Of a stretch of DNA of 64,000 bases, positions 3,754-60,931 are shown in pieces. A model generated the notes under the pieces. The model worked only from the letters and a program-made list of their open reading frames with translations, made no database searches and had not been told where the DNA came from. Source of the stretch: an uncultured delta proteobacterium (lineage in GTDB: Bacteria > Desulfobacterota > SM23-61). The translations under genes and the position numbers were made by a program. The stretch's first letter is position 1. The number at the start of each line of letters is the position of its first letter. The stretch spans positions 16,970 to 80,969 of the forward strand of contig CAVXFA010000040.1 of assembly GCA_963760605.1 (NCBI GenBank), in the 5' to 3' direction.

Positions 3754-5766
3754 TTAAGGGGAAATTGCCACGGGGACGGTCCCTTCCCGGAAGCATTCGA
3801 AAATAACTTTCTCGGATTGCGCCGGATGCCCTGGCCCGAGGGGCTCGCCAGTGGCTGCGTCTACCTTGGCGAAGACAATTCCTTCGGGGAGGGAGAAATT
3901 TTCTACCGGTTCTCCGGCGACGGCTTCTTTCATAAATTCCAACCAGATCGGCAGAGCGGCGACAGCTCCGGTCTCGTGGGTCCCCAGAGGCTTCTCAATA
4001 TCATACCCCATCCAGGCTCCGGCGACCAATCGCTGGGGGACGAAGCCGATAAACCAGGCATCCCGGGTGTCGTTGGTCGTTCCCGTCTTCCCGGCCGCGG
4101 GCCGACCCAATGTTCTGGCCCGTTGGGCCGTTCCTTCCTGAATAACGCTCTGCAACAAGCTGGTGATCAGGTACGAAGTTTGGGGGCTGATGACTTCAAC
4201 GGCAGAAGGTTCCACTTCTTCCAGGATGTTGCCGTCTTTGTCCAAAATCCGGGTGATCAATAACGGCTCGGCCCGGTAACCCTGAGCAGCGAAGACCCCA
4301 TAAGCGCTGGTCAGCTCCAGCAGGGTTACATTTGCGGAGCCCAAAGCCAGCGAGAGGTTCGGTTCGAGTTTGGATTTGATTCCTAAGTTCTTGGCGTACT
4401 CGATCAGGTAGTCTATCCCGATGGACTGGGCGATCTTTACCGTGACCACGTTTCGGGAAAAGTTCAGGGCCTTGCGCAAGGTAATCGGCCCCCAGAACTC
4501 CCGGTCGAAATTTTGGGGCTCCCAAGGCTCCTTTCCGGGAACGTCGACGTAGGAGAAGGGCTCATCCACGATTACCGTGGCCGGGGTGAACCCCTTATCC
4601 AAAGCAGCGGCATAGACGATGGGCTTGAAAGCTGACCCGGCTTGCCTGCTGGCCTGAGTGGCTCGGTTGAACTGGCTCGACGAGAAATCCCGTCCTCCGA
4701 CCATGGCCAGGATATAACCCGTCTGCGGATCGAGGGCGATCAGTGCTCCCTCCACTTGATCCCGGCCCTTTCCCTGACCTTCCCGGGTCTCGAACTCCTC
4801 CAGCCCTTTCAGTACCGCTTTTTGAGCGGCCCGCTGCAGCCTGGAAGTGATGGTCGTGTAGATCTTCAGGCCCCCTTTATACAACCGGTCTTTGCCGTAC
4901 TTCTCCTCAACGTACAGGCGCACCTGTTCCAGGGCGAAAGGGGCTTCATTGTAGCCCTTAGGCCCCTTGGGCCGTAACCTGATTTCCTCGGCCATGGCTT
5001 TTAGGGCCTGTTCCGGCATGATCATTTGGCGCTCGACCATGCGGTTGAGCACATAGAGTTGGCGATCCCGCGCCTTCTTGGGATGGCGCAGAGGAGATAG
5101 GTTATTCGGGGACGGAGGTAGACCGGCGAGCATCGCGCATTCGGCCAACGTCAAGTTCTGTGGGGATTTCCCAAAATAGGCCTTGGATGCGGCGCCTACC
5201 CCGAAGGCTCCTTCTCCCAAGTATATTTGATTGAGGTAAAGGTAAAGGATCTCGTTCTTGGTCAGGTAGTGCTCGATGCGCTGGGCCAAGATAGCCTCCT
5301 TGACTTTGCGGATAAAGCTCCGCTCGGGGGTAAGGAAGAATGATTTGGCGATCTGCTGGGTGATCGTGGACCCTCCCTGCACCACGTCGAAGGCCTCGAT
5401 ATTGCGGAAGGCGGCCCCCAGTATCCTCCGGTAATCAATCCCCTGGTGTTCGAAAAAACGCGCATCCTCCGCGGCGACGAAGGCCTTGATCAATAATCGG
5501 GACATCTGGGAAAGAGGCAGGACAGTCCGCCTTTCCAAAAAGAACTCGCCGATCAAGACTTCATCGTCGGAATAGACTTCGGAGACAATGTAGGGCTGAT
5601 AATCTTTCAGGGTGGTCAACCTGGGAAGATCGTAGACGAAGGCGAAGTAGAAGACGGTGGCGGCCCCGGCCAGGAGCAGGAGGATCAAGAAAAAAACCAG
5701 AACCAGAGCATTCCAGCGGATTCCCATTTTTTTCTTTGCCGGTTTTGCATTCTGATTATTCATCAT
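3754..5766 (-). CDS. mrcA: Class A penicillin-binding protein 1A (transglycosylase/transpeptidase)
   Basis: 670 aa; N-terminal TM anchor; glycosyltransferase motifs (EDARFFEHQGID, GGSTITQQ); transpeptidase SxxK-like STFK region (RQAGSAFKP) and KTGTT. Confidence 0.9.
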   Translation of the reverse strand: MMNNQNAKPAKKKMGIRWNALVLVFFLILLLLAGAATVFYFAFVYDLPRLTTLKDYQPYIVSEVYSDDEVLIGEFFLERRTVLPLSQMSRLLIKAFVAAEDARFFEHQGIDYRRILGAAFRNIEAFDVVQGGSTITQQIAKSFFLTPERSFIRKVKEAILAQRIEHYLTKNEILYLYLNQIYLGEGAFGVGAASKAYFGKSPQNLTLAECAMLAGLPPSPNNLSPLRHPKKARDRQLYVLNRMVERQMIMPEQALKAMAEEIRLRPKGPKGYNEAPFALEQVRLYVEEKYGKDRLYKGGLKIYTTITSRLQRAAQKAVLKGLEEFETREGQGKGRDQVEGALIALDPQTGYILAMVGGRDFSSSQFNRATQASRQAGSAFKPIVYAAALDKGFTPATVIVDEPFSYVDVPGKEPWEPQNFDREFWGPITLRKALNFSRNVVTVKIAQSIGIDYLIEYAKNLGIKSKLEPNLSLALGSANVTLLELTSAYGVFAAQGYRAEPLLITRILDKDGNILEEVEPSAVEVISPQTSYLITSLLQSVIQEGTAQRARTLGRPAAGKTGTTNDTRDAWFIGFVPQRLVAGAWMGYDIEKPLGTHETGAVAALPIWLEFMKEAVAGEPVENFSLPEGIVFAKVDAATGEPLGPGHPAQSEKVIFECFREGTVPVAISP

Positions 5767-5854
5767 TTTAAATTATACCACATCTTCGACGATTGAGCCT
5801 CCCCGGCCGAAAAGGATCGGAAGTCAAGGAAATATTTCTAGAAACCCCGAGGAA

Positions 5855-6712
5855 CTAAGGCTGTTTTTTGAATACGCCAATCCCATTAGGAATGGCCCAT
5901 CCCCCGGGAATGTCAATTTTCAAGGACTTATATTCTGCGTACATTTGGGCCGAGCCTCCACCGTCGAGGGCTAAAGCATCTCGGCACTCCAGACCGCCCT
6001 CGGATTCAGGAAGGCGAAAAATCCTTGCCAAATCCTGGAAGTAGGCGTCCGTATCCTCCGTGTTCAGTAGGATAATCTGATTCTTGAACGTAATGCCCAG
6101 AGCAGAGCGCCTGGATACCTGCTTTTTCATAATCTTTACCTTGCCATCGACTACGAGCCGCGGGCCAACCTGGAGCGCCTGGGAAATGGTCCCGTCATTT
6201 TCGAACTCTTTCGTGTGGATAATACGGGGGCGGCTGTCCTGGATCAGAAAAATTCCCCAATCTGCTTTCCGCAAGGGGTTGACCTCCCGGCCGTCAACGA
6301 TCAAAAAGCCGAGGGGCCTATAATCTGGGAAAAAGAATCCACCGTTGATCGCAGCCAGGGCTTGGGCTCGCCTGGCCAGGGTCTTGATCTCCATCCTGTC
6401 CACCCCAAAAGCCCGGCTGTCGAGCACTCGAACCTGGAACCGATCCGGGTCTATCCTCAGAACCCTCAGCTTGAAGAAGGTTTGGTATGGCGGGCCGTCA
6501 AGTTGTATGAACCCGGCCTCGAATCCTTCATCGATTTTTTGCCAAAAAGTGCCCGCGGAGGAGTTGGCGGCCTGGCCCATCAGCATCGGGGACGCTGTAA
6601 GGACCAAGAGCAAGGAGGCCCACTGTAATTTTTTTCCCCCCAAAAGTTTAATCTCCCCCCTTCTTTTAATAAAAATTATATACCAAATAGTTGCCCTAAT
6701 GGAATACCCCAT
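5855..6712 (-). CDS. Phosphodiester glycosidase (NAGPA-like/DUF2233) family secreted protein
   Basis: 285 aa; signal-peptide-like N-terminus; family-like blocks (INGGFF, ALALDGGGS). True start is probably internal to the track ORF. Confidence 0.55.
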   Translation of the reverse strand: MGYSIRATIWYIIFIKRRGEIKLLGGKKLQWASLLLVLTASPMLMGQAANSSAGTFWQKIDEGFEAGFIQLDGPPYQTFFKLRVLRIDPDRFQVRVLDSRAFGVDRMEIKTLARRAQALAAINGGFFFPDYRPLGFLIVDGREVNPLRKADWGIFLIQDSRPRIIHTKEFENDGTISQALQVGPRLVVDGKVKIMKKQVSRRSALGITFKNQIILLNTEDTDAYFQDLARIFRLPESEGGLECRDALALDGGGSAQMYAEYKSLKIDIPGGWAIPNGIGVFKKQP

Positions 6713-20810: not shown

Positions 20811-21160
20811 AGCCGGGAAGGGTAAGCTTTGAATGCGGAATTTTTTTCGCTGCCTGCGGATATCGGGCTCGCGAAATTCGCCTAAAAAAATCCGCCAGCC
20901 GCTCCGCCGTGAGGAAGCTTGGGAATGAAATTTAAGAGGAAGACCGGGGCGGGTTTTATCATTACCTGTTGCTCCTGGTAACCGAGGAGGAACTAAAGGA
21001 GCGCGTCATCAAGGTTTACCCGGCGAAGAAGAACCCTTGAAAAACTTCATCCTCGTCAGTCGTCCAAGCGGGGCAAGCCGAACGACCGATTTCGCCGTCC
21101 CGATCCTCTCCTCCTCCCAGATGGGCGGCGGACGTCCCAGCAGCCCAAAAGGAAGAAAGC

Positions 21161-22345
21161 TTGCCTAAATCGGAAAAAGGCGGACGAGGCCGGACCCTCT
21201 TCTCTTTCTGTGCCTTCCATTTCCTAGACGATGGCTTTACAGATTCCATCTACCTACTTCTTCCCTTCATCGCCGCCGAGTTGCACCTTTCCTTCAGCCA
21301 GGTGGGGTTACTCAAAGGGGTCTTCTCGGCCTCCATGAGTCTCTTCCAGTTTCCCTTAAGTCTTCTGGGGGAGAAGGTCGGAGAATTAACGATGATCGCC
21401 GGCGGAACTTTTGGCCTGGCCGGCGGGTTCTTGATCTTGAGCAGGTCTCACACTTTTTTGACAATTCTTCTTTCTCTCATTTTTGCCAAGGGAACCGCTG
21501 GCGGCCAGCATGGGCTGGCTTCTTCCATCCTCTCCCGGGCCTTTGAAGTGTCCGGGCGCCGGGCGGCGATGGGAACTTATAATTTTTCCGGTGATCTGGG
21601 AAAGGTTTGCTTGTCTTTTCTGGTAGCTCTGATGATTAACCTCTGGAACTGGCGGCAGGCAATTTTCATTTTCTCCCTCGGCGGGTTTACGGCTGGCGTA
21701 GTTCTCTGGACCCTGGCTGAACAGAGAAAGGCCCGACCTCCATCCTCGCGGCGCGAAGACCATCTCGCAGCGAAAGTTATTGGCTGGGGGATCCGCAACC
21801 GGAAAAGCTTCTCAGCCCTGCTGACCATTGGAGTCATCGACATCGCCGCGCGCATGGCCTTGCTCACCTTCCTTCCTTTCCTTCTTTTACAGAAAGGGAT
21901 TCCCTCTACACAGGTCGGGTTTGCCCTAAGTCTCCTTTTCGCCGGCGGGGCGATGGGAAAGTTTGCCTGCGGGATTCTGGCTGAATGGCTCGGAATCATT
22001 CCCATGGTGGTGGGCACGGAAATTCTGACCACCATCGGGATTTTATCTTTGCTCTGGTCTTCGCCCTCGGTCGTCTGGGTTTTCCTGCCATTTGTAGGGA
22101 TCGTGCTAAATGGCACTTCTTCCGTGCTCTACGCCACAGTTGCAGAGGTCATCTCTCCCGCTGGCCGCTCCCGGGGATATGGACTCTACTACGCAATCAC
22201 TTTGGGCTGCGGTGCGATCTCCCCGATGATCTACGGTCTGGTTACCGACTCCCTGGGCCTTCCTTTAACGATCATGAGCACAGCCCTGATGGTCTTGATC
22301 ACCCTTCCTTTGAGCCGATACCTCACTCAGCCCGTGAAGGGCTGA
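21161..22345 (+). CDS. MFS transporter
   Basis: 394 aa; about 12 predicted TM helices; MFS-like loop motifs. Start uncertain. Confidence 0.75.
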   Translation: MPKSEKGGRGRTLFSFCAFHFLDDGFTDSIYLLLPFIAAELHLSFSQVGLLKGVFSASMSLFQFPLSLLGEKVGELTMIAGGTFGLAGGFLILSRSHTFLTILLSLIFAKGTAGGQHGLASSILSRAFEVSGRRAAMGTYNFSGDLGKVCLSFLVALMINLWNWRQAIFIFSLGGFTAGVVLWTLAEQRKARPPSSRREDHLAAKVIGWGIRNRKSFSALLTIGVIDIAARMALLTFLPFLLLQKGIPSTQVGFALSLLFAGGAMGKFACGILAEWLGIIPMVVGTEILTTIGILSLLWSSPSVVWVFLPFVGIVLNGTSSVLYATVAEVISPAGRSRGYGLYYAITLGCGAISPMIYGLVTDSLGLPLTIMSTALMVLITLPLSRYLTQPVKG

Positions 22346-22512
22346 CCTTTTCCATCCATAGCCCAGTGCCGAAACGGGATCTTTCCTTTTTTATGAATAA
22401 TCCACCCCCAGTTTTGGGAACATGAAAAACTGTGGCCAAGTTTTTTGGTAGTGGGTCAGTTTGAAAAATAATGGGGATTGACAATGCTTGAGCGGATAAG
22501 TAAAATGGAGGC

Positions 22513-22770
22513 ATGGAAAATAAAAAGAAAAGACCACTAGATGTAAATGTGGCCGCCTTCCAGATCGTCCAGGAGGCAACGAAAGAGTCCGATAAACCCA
22601 AACAAGACACTACCCCAAAACCCACCACCAAAGAAAAGAACCCCTCCGCCGTCGCCCTTGGTCGCCTTGGTGGACTTAAAGGCGGTCCTGCCAGAGCAAA
22701 AAAATTATCTAAAAAAAGAAGACGCGAAATAGCCAAGCATGCCGCATTAAGCCGTTGGAAAAAATCATAA
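22513..22770 (+). CDS. Small basic hypothetical protein (Lys/Arg-rich C-terminus, mobile-element-associated type)
   Basis: 85 aa; preceded by TTGACA-N17-TAAAAT and a GGAGG RBS; lies in the AT-rich islet. Confidence 0.5.
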   Translation: MENKKKRPLDVNVAAFQIVQEATKESDKPKQDTTPKPTTKEKNPSAVALGRLGGLKGGPARAKKLSKKRRREIAKHAALSRWKKS

Positions 22771-22924
22771 GGATATTAATGCCTTAGTTATAATTGCTAT
22801 CCAAGCACTAGATGTAGTGGTTATCCAACCACAACTATACAATTCCTCCACTAAAACATTTTGTCATTGACAATTATAGTTGTCTTTTGGTAAATTAATC
22901 TAAAACACAACTACGAGGAAAAGC

Positions 22925-23398
22925 ATGGACAAAACCAACAAGGAAAAATTCGCGGAGATTAAGAAGTTCATTAGGACGGAATTTGAGTCTAGGGTGGAAA
23001 TATTAAGGCAGGCAATGGAAAACGCGATTGCTGGTATTTCCCGCCTTGAAGATACCTTTGACCTTGCCGATAGGCAAAGCACGAAAGGAATCCCCATTCA
23101 AACACAACCACCATCTGCCCTTTTAAATAGAGTCAATAGGCGGCCAGCTATTAGGGGTAAAAAGAAAAAAACGGCGGGCCAAAGGATGGATGTAGCCTTG
23201 GCGGGTATTCCAGAGAAATTTACTCGTAAAGAACTTAAAGACAAAATAAATAGCGATGGCAAAAAGTCTATAAAAGATGGTACTTTTGGGAGTGAGTTTG
23301 CAAAGCGCCTAAACAGAGGAAAGATATTTGTGCAACAAGAGAGTGTCGGAAACAAACCCGGAATTTACTCTAAACTCAAGGATGCCGGACAGGCCTAA
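22925..23398 (+). CDS. Hypothetical protein (islet-encoded)
   Basis: 157 aa; preceded by TTGACA-N18-TAAATT and an inverted repeat ACAACTATA...TATAGTTGT; no recognisable domain. Confidence 0.4.
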   Translation: MDKTNKEKFAEIKKFIRTEFESRVEILRQAMENAIAGISRLEDTFDLADRQSTKGIPIQTQPPSALLNRVNRRPAIRGKKKKTAGQRMDVALAGIPEKFTRKELKDKINSDGKKSIKDGTFGSEFAKRLNRGKIFVQQESVGNKPGIYSKLKDAGQA

Positions 23399-23586
23399 TC
23401 CTTCCCAGCCATCAAAGAAAGCTAGAGGGAGGGGAAAGGGGGATAAATATGAGACCACCAAAGAGAAAGCGCCGGGTGGATGTTTCACTGAGGGGCGGCG
23501 CGATACAAATAAAAAAATAAAGGGAAGTGCATGAGCTTGGCCGCTAGTCACTTCCCTTTATCCCCTAACCATCTAGGGTTTACCGT

Positions 23587-23659
23587 GCCCCTGTAGCTCA
23601 AACGGATAGAGCGCCTGCCTACTAAGCTGGGGATCTCAGTTCGAACCTGAGCAGGGGCA
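23587..23659 (+). tRNA. tRNA-like gene with aberrant anticodon arm (possible pseudo-tRNA or islet-borne tRNA; no encoded CCA)
   Basis: Cloverleaf read by hand: acceptor GCCCCTG/CAGGGGC, D-arm GCTC-AAACGGATA-GAGC, T-arm CTCAG-TTCGAAC-CTGAG. The anticodon stem CCTGC/GCTGG has a central U-U mismatch and the loop CTACTAA gives an unusual ACU anticodon. Confidence 0.5.
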
Positions 23660-23729
23660 CCCCCGATATCTCTATCGGTTTTTTGTATTTTAGTATAAGG
23701 AATATTTTTAGTCAAGGTCAATTTTTCTC

Positions 23730-23758
23730 TTGACAGCTTGAGCGCTCAAGCATATAAT
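23730..23758 (+). promoter_or_regulatory. Consensus sigma70 promoter TTGACA-N17-TATAAT whose spacer is the perfect palindrome GCTTGAGCGCTCAAGC; drives the IS1-family transposase
   Basis: Read directly. The ATG at 23765 lies only about 7 nt after the -10, implying a leaderless mRNA. The GCTTGAGCG half-site also occurs in the 22440-22470 promoter. Confidence 0.5.
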
Positions 23759-23764
23759 ATAATC

Positions 23765-24589
23765 ATGAACACGCTCAAACCAGAAAAACAAAAACAGGTT
23801 TTGGCCGCTCTGGTAGAGGGGAATTCAATCAGAGCAACGTGCAGAATGACAGGAACGGCGAAAGGCACCGTCTTAAAACTTCTGCGGGCTATCGGGAAAG
23901 CTTGCGCCGAATATCAAGACAAGGTGCTTCGAAACCTTTCCTGCAAACGTTTGCAATGTGACGAAGTCTGGGCTTTCTGCTATGCGAAAGAAAAGAACGT
24001 CCCGAAGGACAAAAAGGGTCAATTTGGCTTTGGGGATGTTTGGACTTTCACAGCCCTTTGCGCTGATTCTAAGCTTGTCCCTTCTTGGCGTTTCGGGCGG
24101 CGGGATCTTCAAAATGCTACTGCCTTCATGAAGGATTTGGCCGGACGTCTTAAAAATAGGGTCCAATTAACCACGGACGGTCACAAGATGTATTTAGAGG
24201 CCGTTGAAGATGCCTTCGGTGGGGAGGTAGATTTTAGTCAATTGGTCAAAATATACGGGAGTAGTCCTGAAAGTGAAGTAAGGTACAGCCCAGCAGAGTG
24301 CATAGGAACTGAGAGACACAGAATAGAAGGGAATCCAGATCCCGATCATGTTTCAACGAGCTTCGTAGAACGGCAGAATTTAACCATGAGAATGAATATG
24401 AGGCGGTATACCAGATTGACCAATGCTTTTTCTAAGAAGGTTGAAAACCTAAAGCTATGCCGTGGCCCTTCACTTTATGTACTACAATTTTTGTCGGGTT
24501 CATCAGACTTTAAGGGTTACTCCTGCAATGGAGGCCAAGGTTACGGATCATGTTTGGGAGATTGAAGAGATTTTAAACCTAATGAAATA
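23765..24589 (+). mobile_element. IS1-family (fused InsAB-type) transposase gene with a C-terminal 1-bp frameshift
   Basis: N-terminal HTH and DDE core with IS1-like blocks ([65 protein letters not shown]). After about 24452 the conserved IS1 C-terminus ([39 protein letters not shown]) continues in another frame to a stop at 24589. No terminal inverted repeats were identified. Confidence 0.7.
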
Positions 24590-24594
24590 AATAA

Positions 24595-25806
24595 TTATGG
24601 TAAAAGCTCCGCGAAAGCCCTAAGTTGCTCGGCAACTTCTTTTATGGAGCGAGGGTTGTTCGCGGTTCTACAGTGCGAAGGTAGCCGTCCGACGTTAATA
24701 CCAGAAGCTCCAATCTCCTCTGCGATACCTGAACATTTCAATGCAAACTTGTCGTCGTATAAAGACGCAGTTAGGAAGATGGTTTCCTTGATCTTCAAAG
24801 CCTCTTTGCTTCGCATAGCATCGAAATCTATTTTTTCTCGTTCGTCAGCAAAAAAAATCAAATCAGCAGAAATACTAAAAGCACGCTTCTTCAGATCCGG
24901 ACCTGGAATCACGCGACGAACTTTCTCACGTTGACTAGGAAATTGATTAGAAGGATATTTGAATAGGCGTAGAATCCTAAAACTTTTAGGAATGGATGGC
25001 ATATTGCCGCTGAATGCATCGTCGTTTGCCAACATCAATCCAGCAGGAGAGGGGAAAATTCCATTTATGACGATATGGTATGGTGTTCGATAGATAAGCT
25101 GAAAAACCGGAGCTTTCTTATTGTTTACAACCTCAAGCGCATTTGAATCAAAATTCCGATCCCAACCCGGAACCCTTACAGTAAATTCGTTGCGTTTAAC
25201 CTCTACTGGTGCTTGTCCAGGACCACCATATATTGAAACATCTACAAACAACTTTCCCTTATCAAGATACATCCGAATTGGTTTATAGCCTCCAAAATTG
25301 AATGGTTCTACGGCACGGGTTTCAAGGGCGGAAAGTGCGACGCCAGAAGTTATTCCGCCTTCGCCAAGGGATACCGTTGCTTCTTCTACTTTTTCTTTAA
25401 AGGTGGGCTGTCTTTCTGTCTCTCTGGAACCCTGTGGTTGTGATTTTTGGGGGGATTCAGGAATTAAACCTGGAATTCTTTTCATAACTTCTACGGCGAT
25501 TTCTTCTGCTGTCGGTTGTCTTTGAGCCTGTGTTTTGGCATTTTCCTGAAGTGCCGGAGTTGAAATGGTATATTTCCAGGCCAATCCAGCAGCCACACAA
25601 CCTATTACTCCACCAATGGCGACAACCAACCAGAACGGAGTTTTCATATTTCCAACCTCCGATATTATCTTACCAGAAATTCCAAAGATGATTAATCCGA
25701 TAGCCAAGAAATGGAAAATAATTCTCATTGGCGCACTCCTTGGACGTAAAAATTTGAGCAATATTCCTGCGCCAATGGAAATATATAAATTATAATCCTG
25801 AGACAA
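24595..25806 (-). CDS. Membrane-anchored hypothetical protein (2 N-terminal TM helices and a soluble domain of about 300 aa, unknown function)
   Basis: 403-aa ORF in the AT-rich islet, convergent with the IS1 gene; no recognisable catalytic motif by eye. Confidence 0.45.
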   Translation of the reverse strand: MSQDYNLYISIGAGILLKFLRPRSAPMRIIFHFLAIGLIIFGISGKIISEVGNMKTPFWLVVAIGGVIGCVAAGLAWKYTISTPALQENAKTQAQRQPTAEEIAVEVMKRIPGLIPESPQKSQPQGSRETERQPTFKEKVEEATVSLGEGGITSGVALSALETRAVEPFNFGGYKPIRMYLDKGKLFVDVSIYGGPGQAPVEVKRNEFTVRVPGWDRNFDSNALEVVNNKKAPVFQLIYRTPYHIVINGIFPSPAGLMLANDDAFSGNMPSIPKSFRILRLFKYPSNQFPSQREKVRRVIPGPDLKKRAFSISADLIFFADEREKIDFDAMRSKEALKIKETIFLTASLYDDKFALKCSGIAEEIGASGINVGRLPSHCRTANNPRSIKEVAEQLRAFAELLP

Positions 25807-26122
25807 TCTAACCCCCCCTATTGATGACTAGAATCATATACCAAATTACCTTGCCTTTCCACTCATCAAAGGATGAGTATTCCCAAATTGACCCACTACC
25901 AGTTTTTTATTGTACTTGATTCTCCGGCTTGCCTCCGGTTAGAATAACTTTTGAAAATCGGGATGGAACTTTTGATAAATTAACCTTTCCTTGTAGCTGG
26001 CTGCCCGCGTCCTCCTCCGGATAGAGCCAATCCAAGAACTAGGTAATGGGAATCCTTTACCGGAATGGATGCGCCAGGATGAAAACGAACGAGAACCAAA
26101 TTCGCCCAAGTAGGTCTGGAAT

Positions 26123-60854: not shown

Positions 60855-60931
60855 GCCCCCGTAGCTCAGGTGGATAGAGCAAGGGATTCCTAATCCCTGC
60901 GCCCCGTGTTCGAGTCACGGCGGGGGCACCA
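60855..60931 (+). tRNA. tRNA-Arg (anticodon CCU), CCA encoded
   Basis: Hand-folded cloverleaf: acceptor GCCCCCG/CGGGGGC, D-arm GCTC/GAGC, anticodon stem AGGGA/TCCCT with loop TTCCTAA, T-arm CCGTG-TTCGAGT-CACGG, discriminator A plus CCA. Confidence 0.9.

Follow-up and report, generated by a model that had tools for sequence, protein, structure and literature searches.

We examined a stretch of 64,000 nucleotides (nt) from an uncultured delta proteobacterium (Desulfobacterota, SM23-61; contig CAVXFA010000040.1), referred to here in its full length as the window, in which an AT-rich segment lies between an MFS-transporter gene and an FMN-dehydrogenase gene. Across roughly positions 22350-25950 the GC content falls from about 0.55 to 0.38-0.45, a drop noted in an original prediction made from the letters alone. 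The segment encodes a small basic protein of 85 amino acids (aa; orf85), a second small open reading frame (ORF) of 157 aa (orf157), a tRNA, a frameshifted IS1-family transposase and, convergent with the transposase, a protein of 403 aa (orf403). Both small ORFs agree with the description in that prediction. It had taken the segment for a horizontally acquired islet that merely contains a decaying IS1. Our analysis indicates that the islet is the mobile element itself, bounded by its own repeats and a target duplication: with a probability of about 0.9, positions 22447-25900 (3454 bp) are one complete IS1-family transposon with passenger genes, a type of element termed a transporter insertion sequence (transporter IS).

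Borders, empty site and family membership

A 17-nt inverted repeat, GGTAGTGGGTCA(G/A)TTTG, occurs in exactly two copies in the window, both at the edges of the AT-rich segment, and each is bordered on its outer side by the octamer AGTTTTTT (Table 1). Neither the terminal inverted repeats nor the flanking 8-bp direct repeat had been recognized in the original prediction. DDE transposition would have brought the transposon into the intergenic space between the MFS-transporter and FMN-dehydrogenase genes, duplicating 8 bp of the target in the process.

We sought the empty site through loci syntenic for the FMN-dehydrogenase gene. The locus L090, whose flanks are 95-98% identical to those in the window, lacks the element and is uninterrupted at this site: it reads catgaaaaactgtggccCGGTTTTattgtacttgattc, which is the left flank of the window fused to the right flank, with a single, diverged target copy. 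The MFS gene stands 220-260 nt from the FMN-dehydrogenase gene in six more distant relatives (L092, L093, L095, L096, L108 and L117). Since relatives lack the segment at exactly this site, the segment is an insertion, and a recent one; the proposed horizontal acquisition is thereby upheld, and the synteny comparison that had been suggested for locating the borders shows that the segment is not shared by all relatives. An exact-match search of metagenomes for the reconstructed empty site gave no match; the site found by synteny differs from it by a few bases. L090 (5526-5760) also lacks the whole MFS-transporter gene (window 21114-22420) and has about 230 nt of unrelated sequence there instead, a second strain-level indel beside the insertion site.

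One could also picture an islet acquired by another route, such as an integrase or recombination, that contains a degenerate IS1 and unrelated genes and whose repeats are coincidental or the remnants of two IS copies. The AT-richness of the segment, its mixed gene content and the frameshift in its transposase would all suit such a history. However, only one transposase is present, and the base composition changes exactly where the repeats lie, with a perfect 8-bp duplication flanking them. Moreover, an orf85 gene beside the left repeat and twin promoters recur in dozens of independent elements, and L090 preserves a precise empty site. Inspection of ORFs and repeats in the islet of the window revealed neither an integrase nor att repeats, so that the attachment site once thought possible has no counterpart and no integrase logic is left to explain. 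We regard this history as extremely improbable.

Table 1. Coordinates of the transposon's features and of its borders within the window
Feature	Position	Strand	Remarks
Target-site duplication, left copy, AGTTTTTT	22439-22446	unstranded	identical to 25901-25908
Left terminal inverted repeat, GGTAGTGGGTCAGTTTG	22447-22463	+	same sequence ends elements at related loci
Promoter P1, TTGACA-N17-TAAAAT	22478-22506	+	11/12 match; -10 ends 6 nt before orf85 ATG
orf85, small basic protein, 85 aa	22513-22770	+	24 Lys + Arg vs. 8 Asp + Glu
Promoter P2, TTGACA-N18-TAAATT, for orf157	22867-22896	+	10/12 match, TG extension
orf157, variable middle-module ORF, 157 aa	22925-23398	+	position matches 144-183-aa ORFs of sister elements
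Hairpin, 13-bp stem	23517-23561	+	upstream of tRNA, position conserved
Class I tRNA, anticodon ACU (ACT)	23587-23659	+	Rfam 60.5 bits; 73 nt
Intrinsic terminator, CCGATATCTCTATCGG then T6	23663-23684	+	ends left-hand transcription unit
Promoter P3, TTGACA-N17-TATAAT	23730-23758	+	12/12 match; -10 ends 6 nt before transposase ATG
IS1-family DDE transposase, 274 aa once repaired	23765-24592	+	full-length alignment to intact relatives
orf403, passenger gene, 403 aa	24595-25806	-	convergent with transposase
Candidate orf403 promoter, TGGAAA-N17-TATGAT	25833-25861	-	weak, 9/12 consensus match only
Right terminal inverted repeat, minus-strand reading GGTAGTGGGTCAATTTG	25884-25900	-	pairs with left repeat
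Target-site duplication, right copy, AGTTTTTT	25901-25908	unstranded	8/8 match with left copy

Hallmarks of the IS1 family in ISfinder are ends of the form GGnnnTG and a target duplication of 8-9 bp. GGTAGTG, which stands at both ends of the window element and in related elements, fits this consensus, and PGAP names proteins 54-60% identical to the window transposase 'IS1 family transposase'. Our assignment to the family draws on these ends, the length of the duplication and the naming of the relatives. The conserved residues of the transposase are D66, D138 and E202. Its relatives are encoded by a single uninterrupted ORF of 274 aa, and the classical arrangement of insA and insB' joined by a programmed -1 frameshift is absent; the element is therefore of the single-ORF subgroup type and not IS1 proper. 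The frameshift in the window copy is of another kind, being in the +1 direction and unique to this copy: it consists of one extra base at 24452, in the AAA run 24451-24453, and is accompanied by no other sign of decay. Given this 1-nt insertion, the copy is either freshly inactivated or mis-assembled in the homopolymer. The transposase is thus frameshifted, as predicted, but its description as decaying comes down to a single 1-nt indel in a homopolymer.

Single-ORF and ISMhu11-like subgroups of the IS1 family carry passenger genes (ISfinder; reviews by Siguier et al.), and the ISfinder size range for the subgroup with passengers is 0.9-4.6 kb. The window element resembles these subgroups in its GGnnnTG ends, 8-bp duplication, relatives named 'IS1 family' by PGAP, and size. 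It differs from the IS1 family in lacking the InsA/InsAB' -1 frameshift arrangement and in possessing a conserved 85-aa basic protein, twin leaderless-type promoters with a palindromic operator, and a tRNA slot. A second point of comparison is the IS1595 family, whose relation to IS1 was reportedly treated by Siguier and colleagues in 2009. Transporter ISs of this sister family likewise hold passengers inside their inverted repeats and generate 8-bp duplications, and IS1595 elements (L001-L004, L166 and L167) carry close homologs of orf403. The window transposase, in contrast, lacks the Zn-ribbon_IS1595 and DDE_Tnp_IS1595 domains and matches IS1 better than IS1595 (E = 7e-15 vs. 2e-4), and the inverted repeats are different. 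Our literature search on a link between IS1 and tRNAs, on ISMhu11 and on IS1595 subgroups found nothing relevant; a named ISfinder entry may exist.

A conserved vehicle with exchangeable parts

A genome-wide search with the repaired transposase identified 475 relatives with full-length matches, and we examined the best 80 loci. The same terminal repeat is paired around the transposase in 60 of these 80, which together with the window copy gives 61 delimited elements of about 1.8 to 5.3 kb. Perfect 8-bp duplications of varied sequence flank 55 of the 61 (54 without the window copy). The hosts belong to the Thermodesulfobacteriota, Aminicenantes, Acidobacteriota, Chloroflexota, Patescibacteria, Omnitrophota and other groups, and the related elements are more AT-rich than their flanks (0.42 vs. 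0.51). Their order is shared: a left repeat; a promoter with operator; orf85; a variable middle ORF; an optional tRNA slot with terminator; a second copy of the promoter and operator; the transposase; variable cargo; and the right repeat.

This exchange of parts on a common backbone is illustrated by a sister element found in L085/L086 (3686 bp; target duplication GGGCCTAG). It is 82% identical to the window at the nucleotide level in the left repeat and orf85, and 76% identical in the hairpin that precedes the tRNA, the tRNA and the transposase. Its middle ORF differs from that of the window, and the position and orientation of orf403 are taken by a 468-aa AlbA_2+HATPase_c_4 protein. With orf403 lying between the transposase and the right repeat, and with cargo varying among sisters that share the backbone, the element has the organization of a transporter IS. 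The vehicle is of a known kind and would work like an IS1-family transporter IS that holds its own transposase expression in check and can exchange its cargo; its accessory protein, twin operator promoters, mismatched-tRNA slot and orphan beta-domain cargo are features unreported or merely hinted at so far. In place of a vague islet stands a mobile element with precise borders and with a regulatory anatomy that is shared across phyla, and the small basic protein and two of the promoters, formerly counted among the traits of the islet, prove to be conserved or recurrent transposon parts, as does the tRNA slot.

The three near-perfect sigma70 promoters proposed for the segment all exist, although the first begins at 22478 and not, as had been stated, at 22441, about 37 nt away. 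Promoter-like sites are enriched in the region (11 vs. 5.7 +/- 2.0 in shuffles), but conservation across elements is the stronger argument that the promoters are real: sites of the P1/P3 type recur in related elements, with TTGACA in 43 of 61 and an operator-like palindrome in 32 of 61. The motif said to be embedded in two of the promoters was confirmed as GCTTGAGCG, common to P1 (22486-22494) and P3 (23736-23744). In P3 it forms half of a perfect 16-bp palindrome, GCTTGAGCGCTCAAGC (23736-23751), held in the spacer; the copy in P1 corresponds to an operator half-site, and the layout of P1 beside the left repeat is kept in many elements. DNA preceding the transposase is conserved across the family as cTTGACAatGCTTGAGCGgTCAAGtATAAT, with the ATG a few bases past the -10 hexamer, and a second copy of the same promoter design drives orf85 beside the left repeat. 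P1 and P3 thus belong to the conserved vehicle and not to the cargo.

Since the -10 hexamer of P3 ends 6 nt before the ATG, the transposase mRNA is probably leaderless, and that of orf85 would be so as well. We propose that an element-encoded DNA binder, for which orf85 and the N-terminal helix-turn-helix of the transposase are candidates, represses P1 and P3 through the shared palindrome GCTTGAGCG-CTCAAGC, and that this repression would keep transposition low. In many elements a further motif, TTGTCAAG, lies 25-30 nt upstream of the transposase -35 (window 23687-23721, minus strand). Two readings offer themselves: an outward-facing -35, the window having two promoter-like sites on the minus strand, or an additional half-site of the operator. 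Transcription from such a minus-strand promoter would run antisense to the tRNA.

Homologs of orf85 occur upstream of the transposase, next to the inner edge of the left repeat, in about 55 of the 80 loci and in 44 of the 61 delimited elements. They share an invariant core, KNPxAVALGxLGGxKGGxxR..L..A..A..RW, and the protein database holds more than 4650 of them, none with a Pfam family. We detected no related solved structure by sequence profile against the PDB and no family-library or PADLOC match (E <= 0.1) for orf85 itself; PGAP names the homolog in Mesorhizobium loti, beside an 'IS1 family transposase', 'histone H1'. By its conservation and position, orf85 is an accessory or regulatory gene of this IS group, a part of the vehicle and not of the cargo. 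The middle ORFs of sister elements (144-183 aa) combine, as judged by eye, a coiled coil with a winged helix; orf157 matches them in position and has no family-library match and no PADLOC match at E <= 0.1.

Several results weigh against the reading proposed here. The match of the transposase to NCBIfam transpos_IS1 (E = 7e-15) scores 55 bits where the curated cutoff is 100, and that to Pfam DDE_Tnp_IS1 scores 21 bits against a cutoff of 24. The transposase is frameshifted, and any activity of the window copy is putative. Neither tblastn nor jackhmmer found a homolog of orf157 among the related elements. Finally, leaderless expression and repression through the palindrome are predicted from sequence features.

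Other members of the family show further variations. The element in L165 (Mesorhizobium loti plasmid p_1, CP050295.1 470622-473432) has the same architecture in a cultured organism: two cargo genes accompany an 'IS1 family transposase' and the orf85 homolog that bears the annotation 'histone H1'. Its host is a possible experimental model for the family. An Acidobacteriota contig (L030 4341-11932) carries three copies of a related element head to tail, with transposases at 6001, 8556 and 11111 and an orf85 homolog with each. In L089 (27-4657) the IS1-type transposase gene is split into pieces at about 2517-2859 and 4130-4629, and the segment between them encodes an HTH_Tnp_1 (IS3-like) protein, an IS nested in an IS. 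Host tRNA genes for Thr, Ala and Tyr stand just beyond the inverted repeats, 50-90 nt away, of elements in L037 (6121-6193), L052 (7293-7365) and L039 (3455-3537); this may be due to chance or to a mild preference for insertion near tRNA genes.

The transposon-borne tRNA

The segment does carry the tRNA that had been described as aberrant, but covariation shows it to be under structural selection and not degenerate. It folds as a 7/5 cloverleaf whose variable loop has 4 nt and whose anticodon stem contains one U-U mismatch; CCA is not encoded. The canonical features of a tRNA (U8, G18G19, T54-psi55-C56 and a 7-nt anticodon loop) are present. Its body is of the Arg type (A20, C35, U36, A73) and comes closest to the host tRNA-Arg(CCU) at window 60855-60931, from which its acceptor stem and D arm hardly differ; the anticodon ACU, however, reads the Ser codon AGU and no Arg codon. 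The Arg identity rules used here are those of E. coli and T. thermophilus. ARAGORN labels the gene tRNA-Ser on the basis of the anticodon alone. Bacterial seryl-tRNA synthetase requires a long variable arm (class II) and G73. We rejected the label because the long variable arm is missing and A73 stands in place of G73.

Of the 61 delimited elements, 17 have a tRNA on the transposase strand (ARAGORN), and 15 of the 17 have it 74-181 nt upstream of the transposase ATG; the same placement recurs in further loci whose element ends are undelimited. Two types of tRNA with a mismatch between body and anticodon occupy this slot. Class A, the type found in the window, is represented by 15 distinct elements: besides the window, these are 13 of the genome loci and the L085 sister. 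The anticodon is GCU in 10 and ACU in 5, so that position 34 is always a purine. Class B tRNAs are 91-97 nt long and have a long variable arm, an acceptor stem of 7-8 bp and G73; their anticodon is mostly UAU, with UAG and CAA also represented. Gly-UCC, Arg-CCG, Thr-CGU and a 90-nt Leu-UAA tRNA occur in the slot as well. Tandem tRNA-like genes are found in L009 (5475-5644), L020 (about 5660-5820), L071 (6083-6261) and L079 (720-907), for example a class II UAU gene followed by an Arg-like GCU gene, or a class A tRNA preceded by a tRNA 3' half that ends in CCA; ARAGORN calls one of them 'tRNA-Stop' (TTA). They recall the 'polycistrons of irregular tRNAs' described by Mukai et al. (2017).

When 12 class A copies from the elements are aligned with the host tRNA-Arg, the paired cells amount to 96% and compensatory change is seen in 18 of 21 pairs, values that no shuffle reaches. 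A20, C35, U36, A37 and A38 are fixed, and the anticodon loop CU-RCU-AA is kept. This covariation of the cloverleaf indicates that the window tRNA is selected as a tRNA. The host tRNA-Arg(CCU) of L050 is the top-scoring tRNA type under the class A model. A pseudogene was rejected on account of the strong covariation, and the covariance model found no degenerate copies. From these features we describe the window tRNA as a putative atypical tRNA-Arg look-alike, structurally intact and with a Ser anticodon.

Most likely it serves the transposon as a functional RNA and is not a decoder that the genes of the transposon need. We considered and rejected recoding: the AGY codons of the transposases stand at columns that are variable or conserved as Ser, and at no Arg column, and a corresponding test of AUA at conserved Ser columns was likewise negative. 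Codon supplementation was also rejected, as transposase genes use AGY at 21.6 per 1000 codons with a class A tRNA and at 20.3 without one. AUA usage is similarly 16.5 vs. 17.2 per 1000 with and without a class B tRNA. Such equal usage gives no sign of supplementation, nor of the avoidance expected for a strongly mistranslated codon.

The closest precedent is the allo-tRNAs, whose bodies and anticodons are mismatched and among which UAU species are the most abundant (Mukai et al., 2017, NAR, PMC5389517). They were found near 'transposon-related' genes and toxin-antitoxin systems and in polycistrons of irregular tRNAs, and two engineered allo-tRNA(UAU) variants killed cells; the transposon that carries them, its ends and the fixed slot upstream of the transposase were not defined in that study (PMC5389517). 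Class B tRNAs of sister elements appear to fit the description of allo-tRNA(UAU), including tandem arrays in L009 and L020; their acceptor stem spans 7-8 bp and their variable arm is long. The window tRNA is no allo-tRNA, being of the 7/5 class I Arg type with a short variable loop and not of the 8/4 or 9/3 Ser type. The family offers a genomic home for non-canonical tRNAs that had until now been loosely tied to transposon-related proteins and toxin-antitoxin systems.

How the tRNA would act as a functional RNA can be viewed in two ways. It is possible, at somewhat less than even odds, that it is a non-decoding element with a role in processing, insulation or regulation linked to the tRNA machinery. 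The position and orientation of the tRNA are fixed between the left operon and the transposase promoter, and a terminator or T-run follows immediately 3' of it; in sister elements the T-run comes directly after the tRNA. The terminator would shield the transposase promoter from read-through, and the tRNA may serve as an RNase P/Z processing site that, together with the transcription stop, terminates the left operon and insulates this promoter. Alternatively, it may be bound by a synthetase or a tRNA-targeting factor and thereby act as a regulator or decoy. That very different tRNAs (Arg-like, class II, Gly, Thr and Arg-CCG) share one slot and that codon usage of the elements is indifferent to them are consistent with a role outside decoding, as is the suggestion that allo-tRNA(UAU) is not used in translation (Mukai et al., 2017; PMC5389517). 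A pure processing or terminator role would, however, leave the conserved anticodon loop, A20 and the purine at position 34 unexplained, and roughly two thirds of the delimited elements have no tRNA at all.

A translationally active missense tRNA, decoding at a low level, is, in our estimation, unlikely. Charged by arginyl-tRNA synthetase (ArgRS) through A20, C35 and U36, it would read the Ser codons AGU and AGC as Arg, much as a Ser-type class II tRNA in sister elements would misread AUA, and the resulting mistranslation could induce stress, enforce addiction or act as a weapon against AT-rich invaders. Conservation of the Arg identity set and of the loop CU-RCU-AA while the stems covary would be expected of such a device, as would the invariable purine at position 34. 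Class II tRNAs with UAU, UAG or CAA in the same slot also have a body that does not match the anticodon, and some allo-tRNAs do insert Ser at non-Ser codons in E. coli, although the allo-tRNA(UAU) species are inactive in its translation (Mukai et al., 2017; PMC5389517). The lack of AGY avoidance in transposase genes and the position of AGY at conserved Ser columns argue against missense decoding, and charging by ArgRS is itself a prediction from the identity rules of E. coli and T. thermophilus. An Arg-type tRNA with a Ser anticodon that is under structural selection could thus represent either natural mobile mistranslation or a new IS-encoded regulatory RNA.

The hairpin upstream of the window tRNA has compensatory changes in L085 and L008 and no Rfam match, and could represent either another structured RNA or a signal for processing. 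Hairpins also precede Arg-like tRNAs in L085, L008, L010, L013 and L015, and one subgroup of elements has a different hairpin of 18-20 bp between CGCCGCC..GGCGAT.

The cargo slot and orf403

Across the family, the right-hand slot holds proteins with PIN, SocA_Panacea (plus a partner gene), GNAT, NYN, DUF3800, DUF6731 or AlbA_2+HATPase_c_4 domains, as well as a dCTP-deaminase-like protein with a transmembrane (TM) segment, a ClpP-like protease and a proteasome-like protein. Such diversity extends to the elements as a whole, in which 126 of 316 called ORFs are singletons. Toxin-antitoxin neighbors of the non-canonical tRNAs are, in this IS1-type family, cargo of the same transposon. Because a sister element with the same backbone holds a different gene in this slot, orf403 is true cargo, as the original prediction had supposed, and a gene that otherwise travels on related transposons: close homologs adjoin IS1595 transposases in all six readable contexts (L001-L004, L166 and L167), with inverted repeats and 8-bp duplications present in L002 and L003. 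So far, no copy other than that of the window has been seen on an IS1-type vehicle.

Two strongly hydrophobic segments in orf403 agree with the two TM helices, and its minus-strand location with the convergent orientation, first ascribed to it. In an AlphaFold2 model built with 15 homologs (pLDDT 81.9), 2-3 TM helices at the N-terminus are joined by a disordered linker to a beta domain (residues ~140-300), which is followed by a four-helix bundle at the C-terminus. The beta domain is modeled confidently and matches no solved fold. A word-index protein search had suggested a family of only 15 homologs, a sensitivity artefact; an exhaustive profile search recovered 1874 representative clusters, most of which consist of an N-terminal TM region and the beta domain only. 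The family that orf403 defines is unannotated, comprises at least 1874 representative clusters and has a confident, unmatched fold and hints of immune-effector modularity. Among searches of family libraries with orf403, orf157 and orf85, a weak PHROG match and a SLATT match at E = 0.1 were dismissed as noise.

We tentatively propose that orf403 could be a membrane-anchored, single-gene module of the conflict or abortive-infection type that helps the transposon persist, with the beta domain probably sensing or binding and the TM helices acting as the effector. The argument is one of guilt by association, drawing on domain exchange in relatives and on the company kept in the cargo slot. Immune effectors typically exchange TM, TIR and nucleosidase domains for one another. 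In single cases among 146 representatives, the N-terminal part of the protein is replaced by a TIR domain (P0140), a PNP_UDP_1 domain (P0185) or a DUF676 esterase, and the nucleosidase-type PNP_UDP_1 domain of P0185 matches a CBASS effector model. Like the CBASS, Thoeris and Pycsar effectors represented in PADLOC, orf403 joins TM helices to a conserved soluble domain, and rare relatives swap the TM part; unlike them, it has no PADLOC match and no cyclase or sensor partner genes, and its beta domain is no known sensor. The defence or abortive-infection cargo imagined earlier is thus plausible in view of the sister cargo and the rare TIR, PNP and esterase fusions, but finds no echo among family models.

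Three observations count against this role. No Pfam, NCBIfam, PHROG or PADLOC family matches orf403, no defence model of PADLOC-DB 2.0 reaching E <= 0.1, and distant relatives match TIR/PNP effector models of PADLOC only rarely and only through their fused domains. Each effector-domain fusion is one protein among the 146 representatives. The genomic context described here covers 6 close homologs, not the 1874 beta-domain representatives. It is conceivable, if somewhat unlikely, that orf403 is no conflict gene at all and serves instead as an accessory to transposition, or is a neutral or host-beneficial membrane protein that hitch-hikes on IS1595 and IS1. Its six readable close homologs are all tightly coupled to the transposase, usually convergent with it and abutting its 3' end, which could reflect a functional link with transposition, and the missing defence-model match would then come as no surprise. 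Yet orf403 rides two different transposase families, the same slot in the window's family holds unrelated toxin-antitoxin and defence-type genes, and in some relatives the TM helices give way to TIR, PNP or esterase domains.

A broader proposition joins the tRNA with the cargo: a widespread, multi-phylum IS1-family group would carry selected, position-fixed tRNAs with mismatched identity and anticodon and would spread an unannotated family of beta-domain membrane proteins that serve as new single-gene modules for defence or abortive infection. We hold the combination to be doubtful. If it is true, the two mismatched tRNA types (Ser GCU/ACU on a body of the Arg type; Ile UAU on a class II body of the Ser/allo-like type) form a device that mistranslates specific A/U-rich codons or regulates the transposon via the tRNA machinery, and the origin of the most abundant 'allo-tRNAs' of soil metagenomes would be explained.

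The junction between cargo and transposase is itself tight. orf403 and its homologs usually abut the transposase 3' end convergently, with 0-2 nt between stop codons (window 24590-24597; L002 3779/3780; L001 7210/7212; L167 1271/1274), and this arrangement is seen on both IS1-type and IS1595-type vehicles despite the unrelated C-termini of their transposases.

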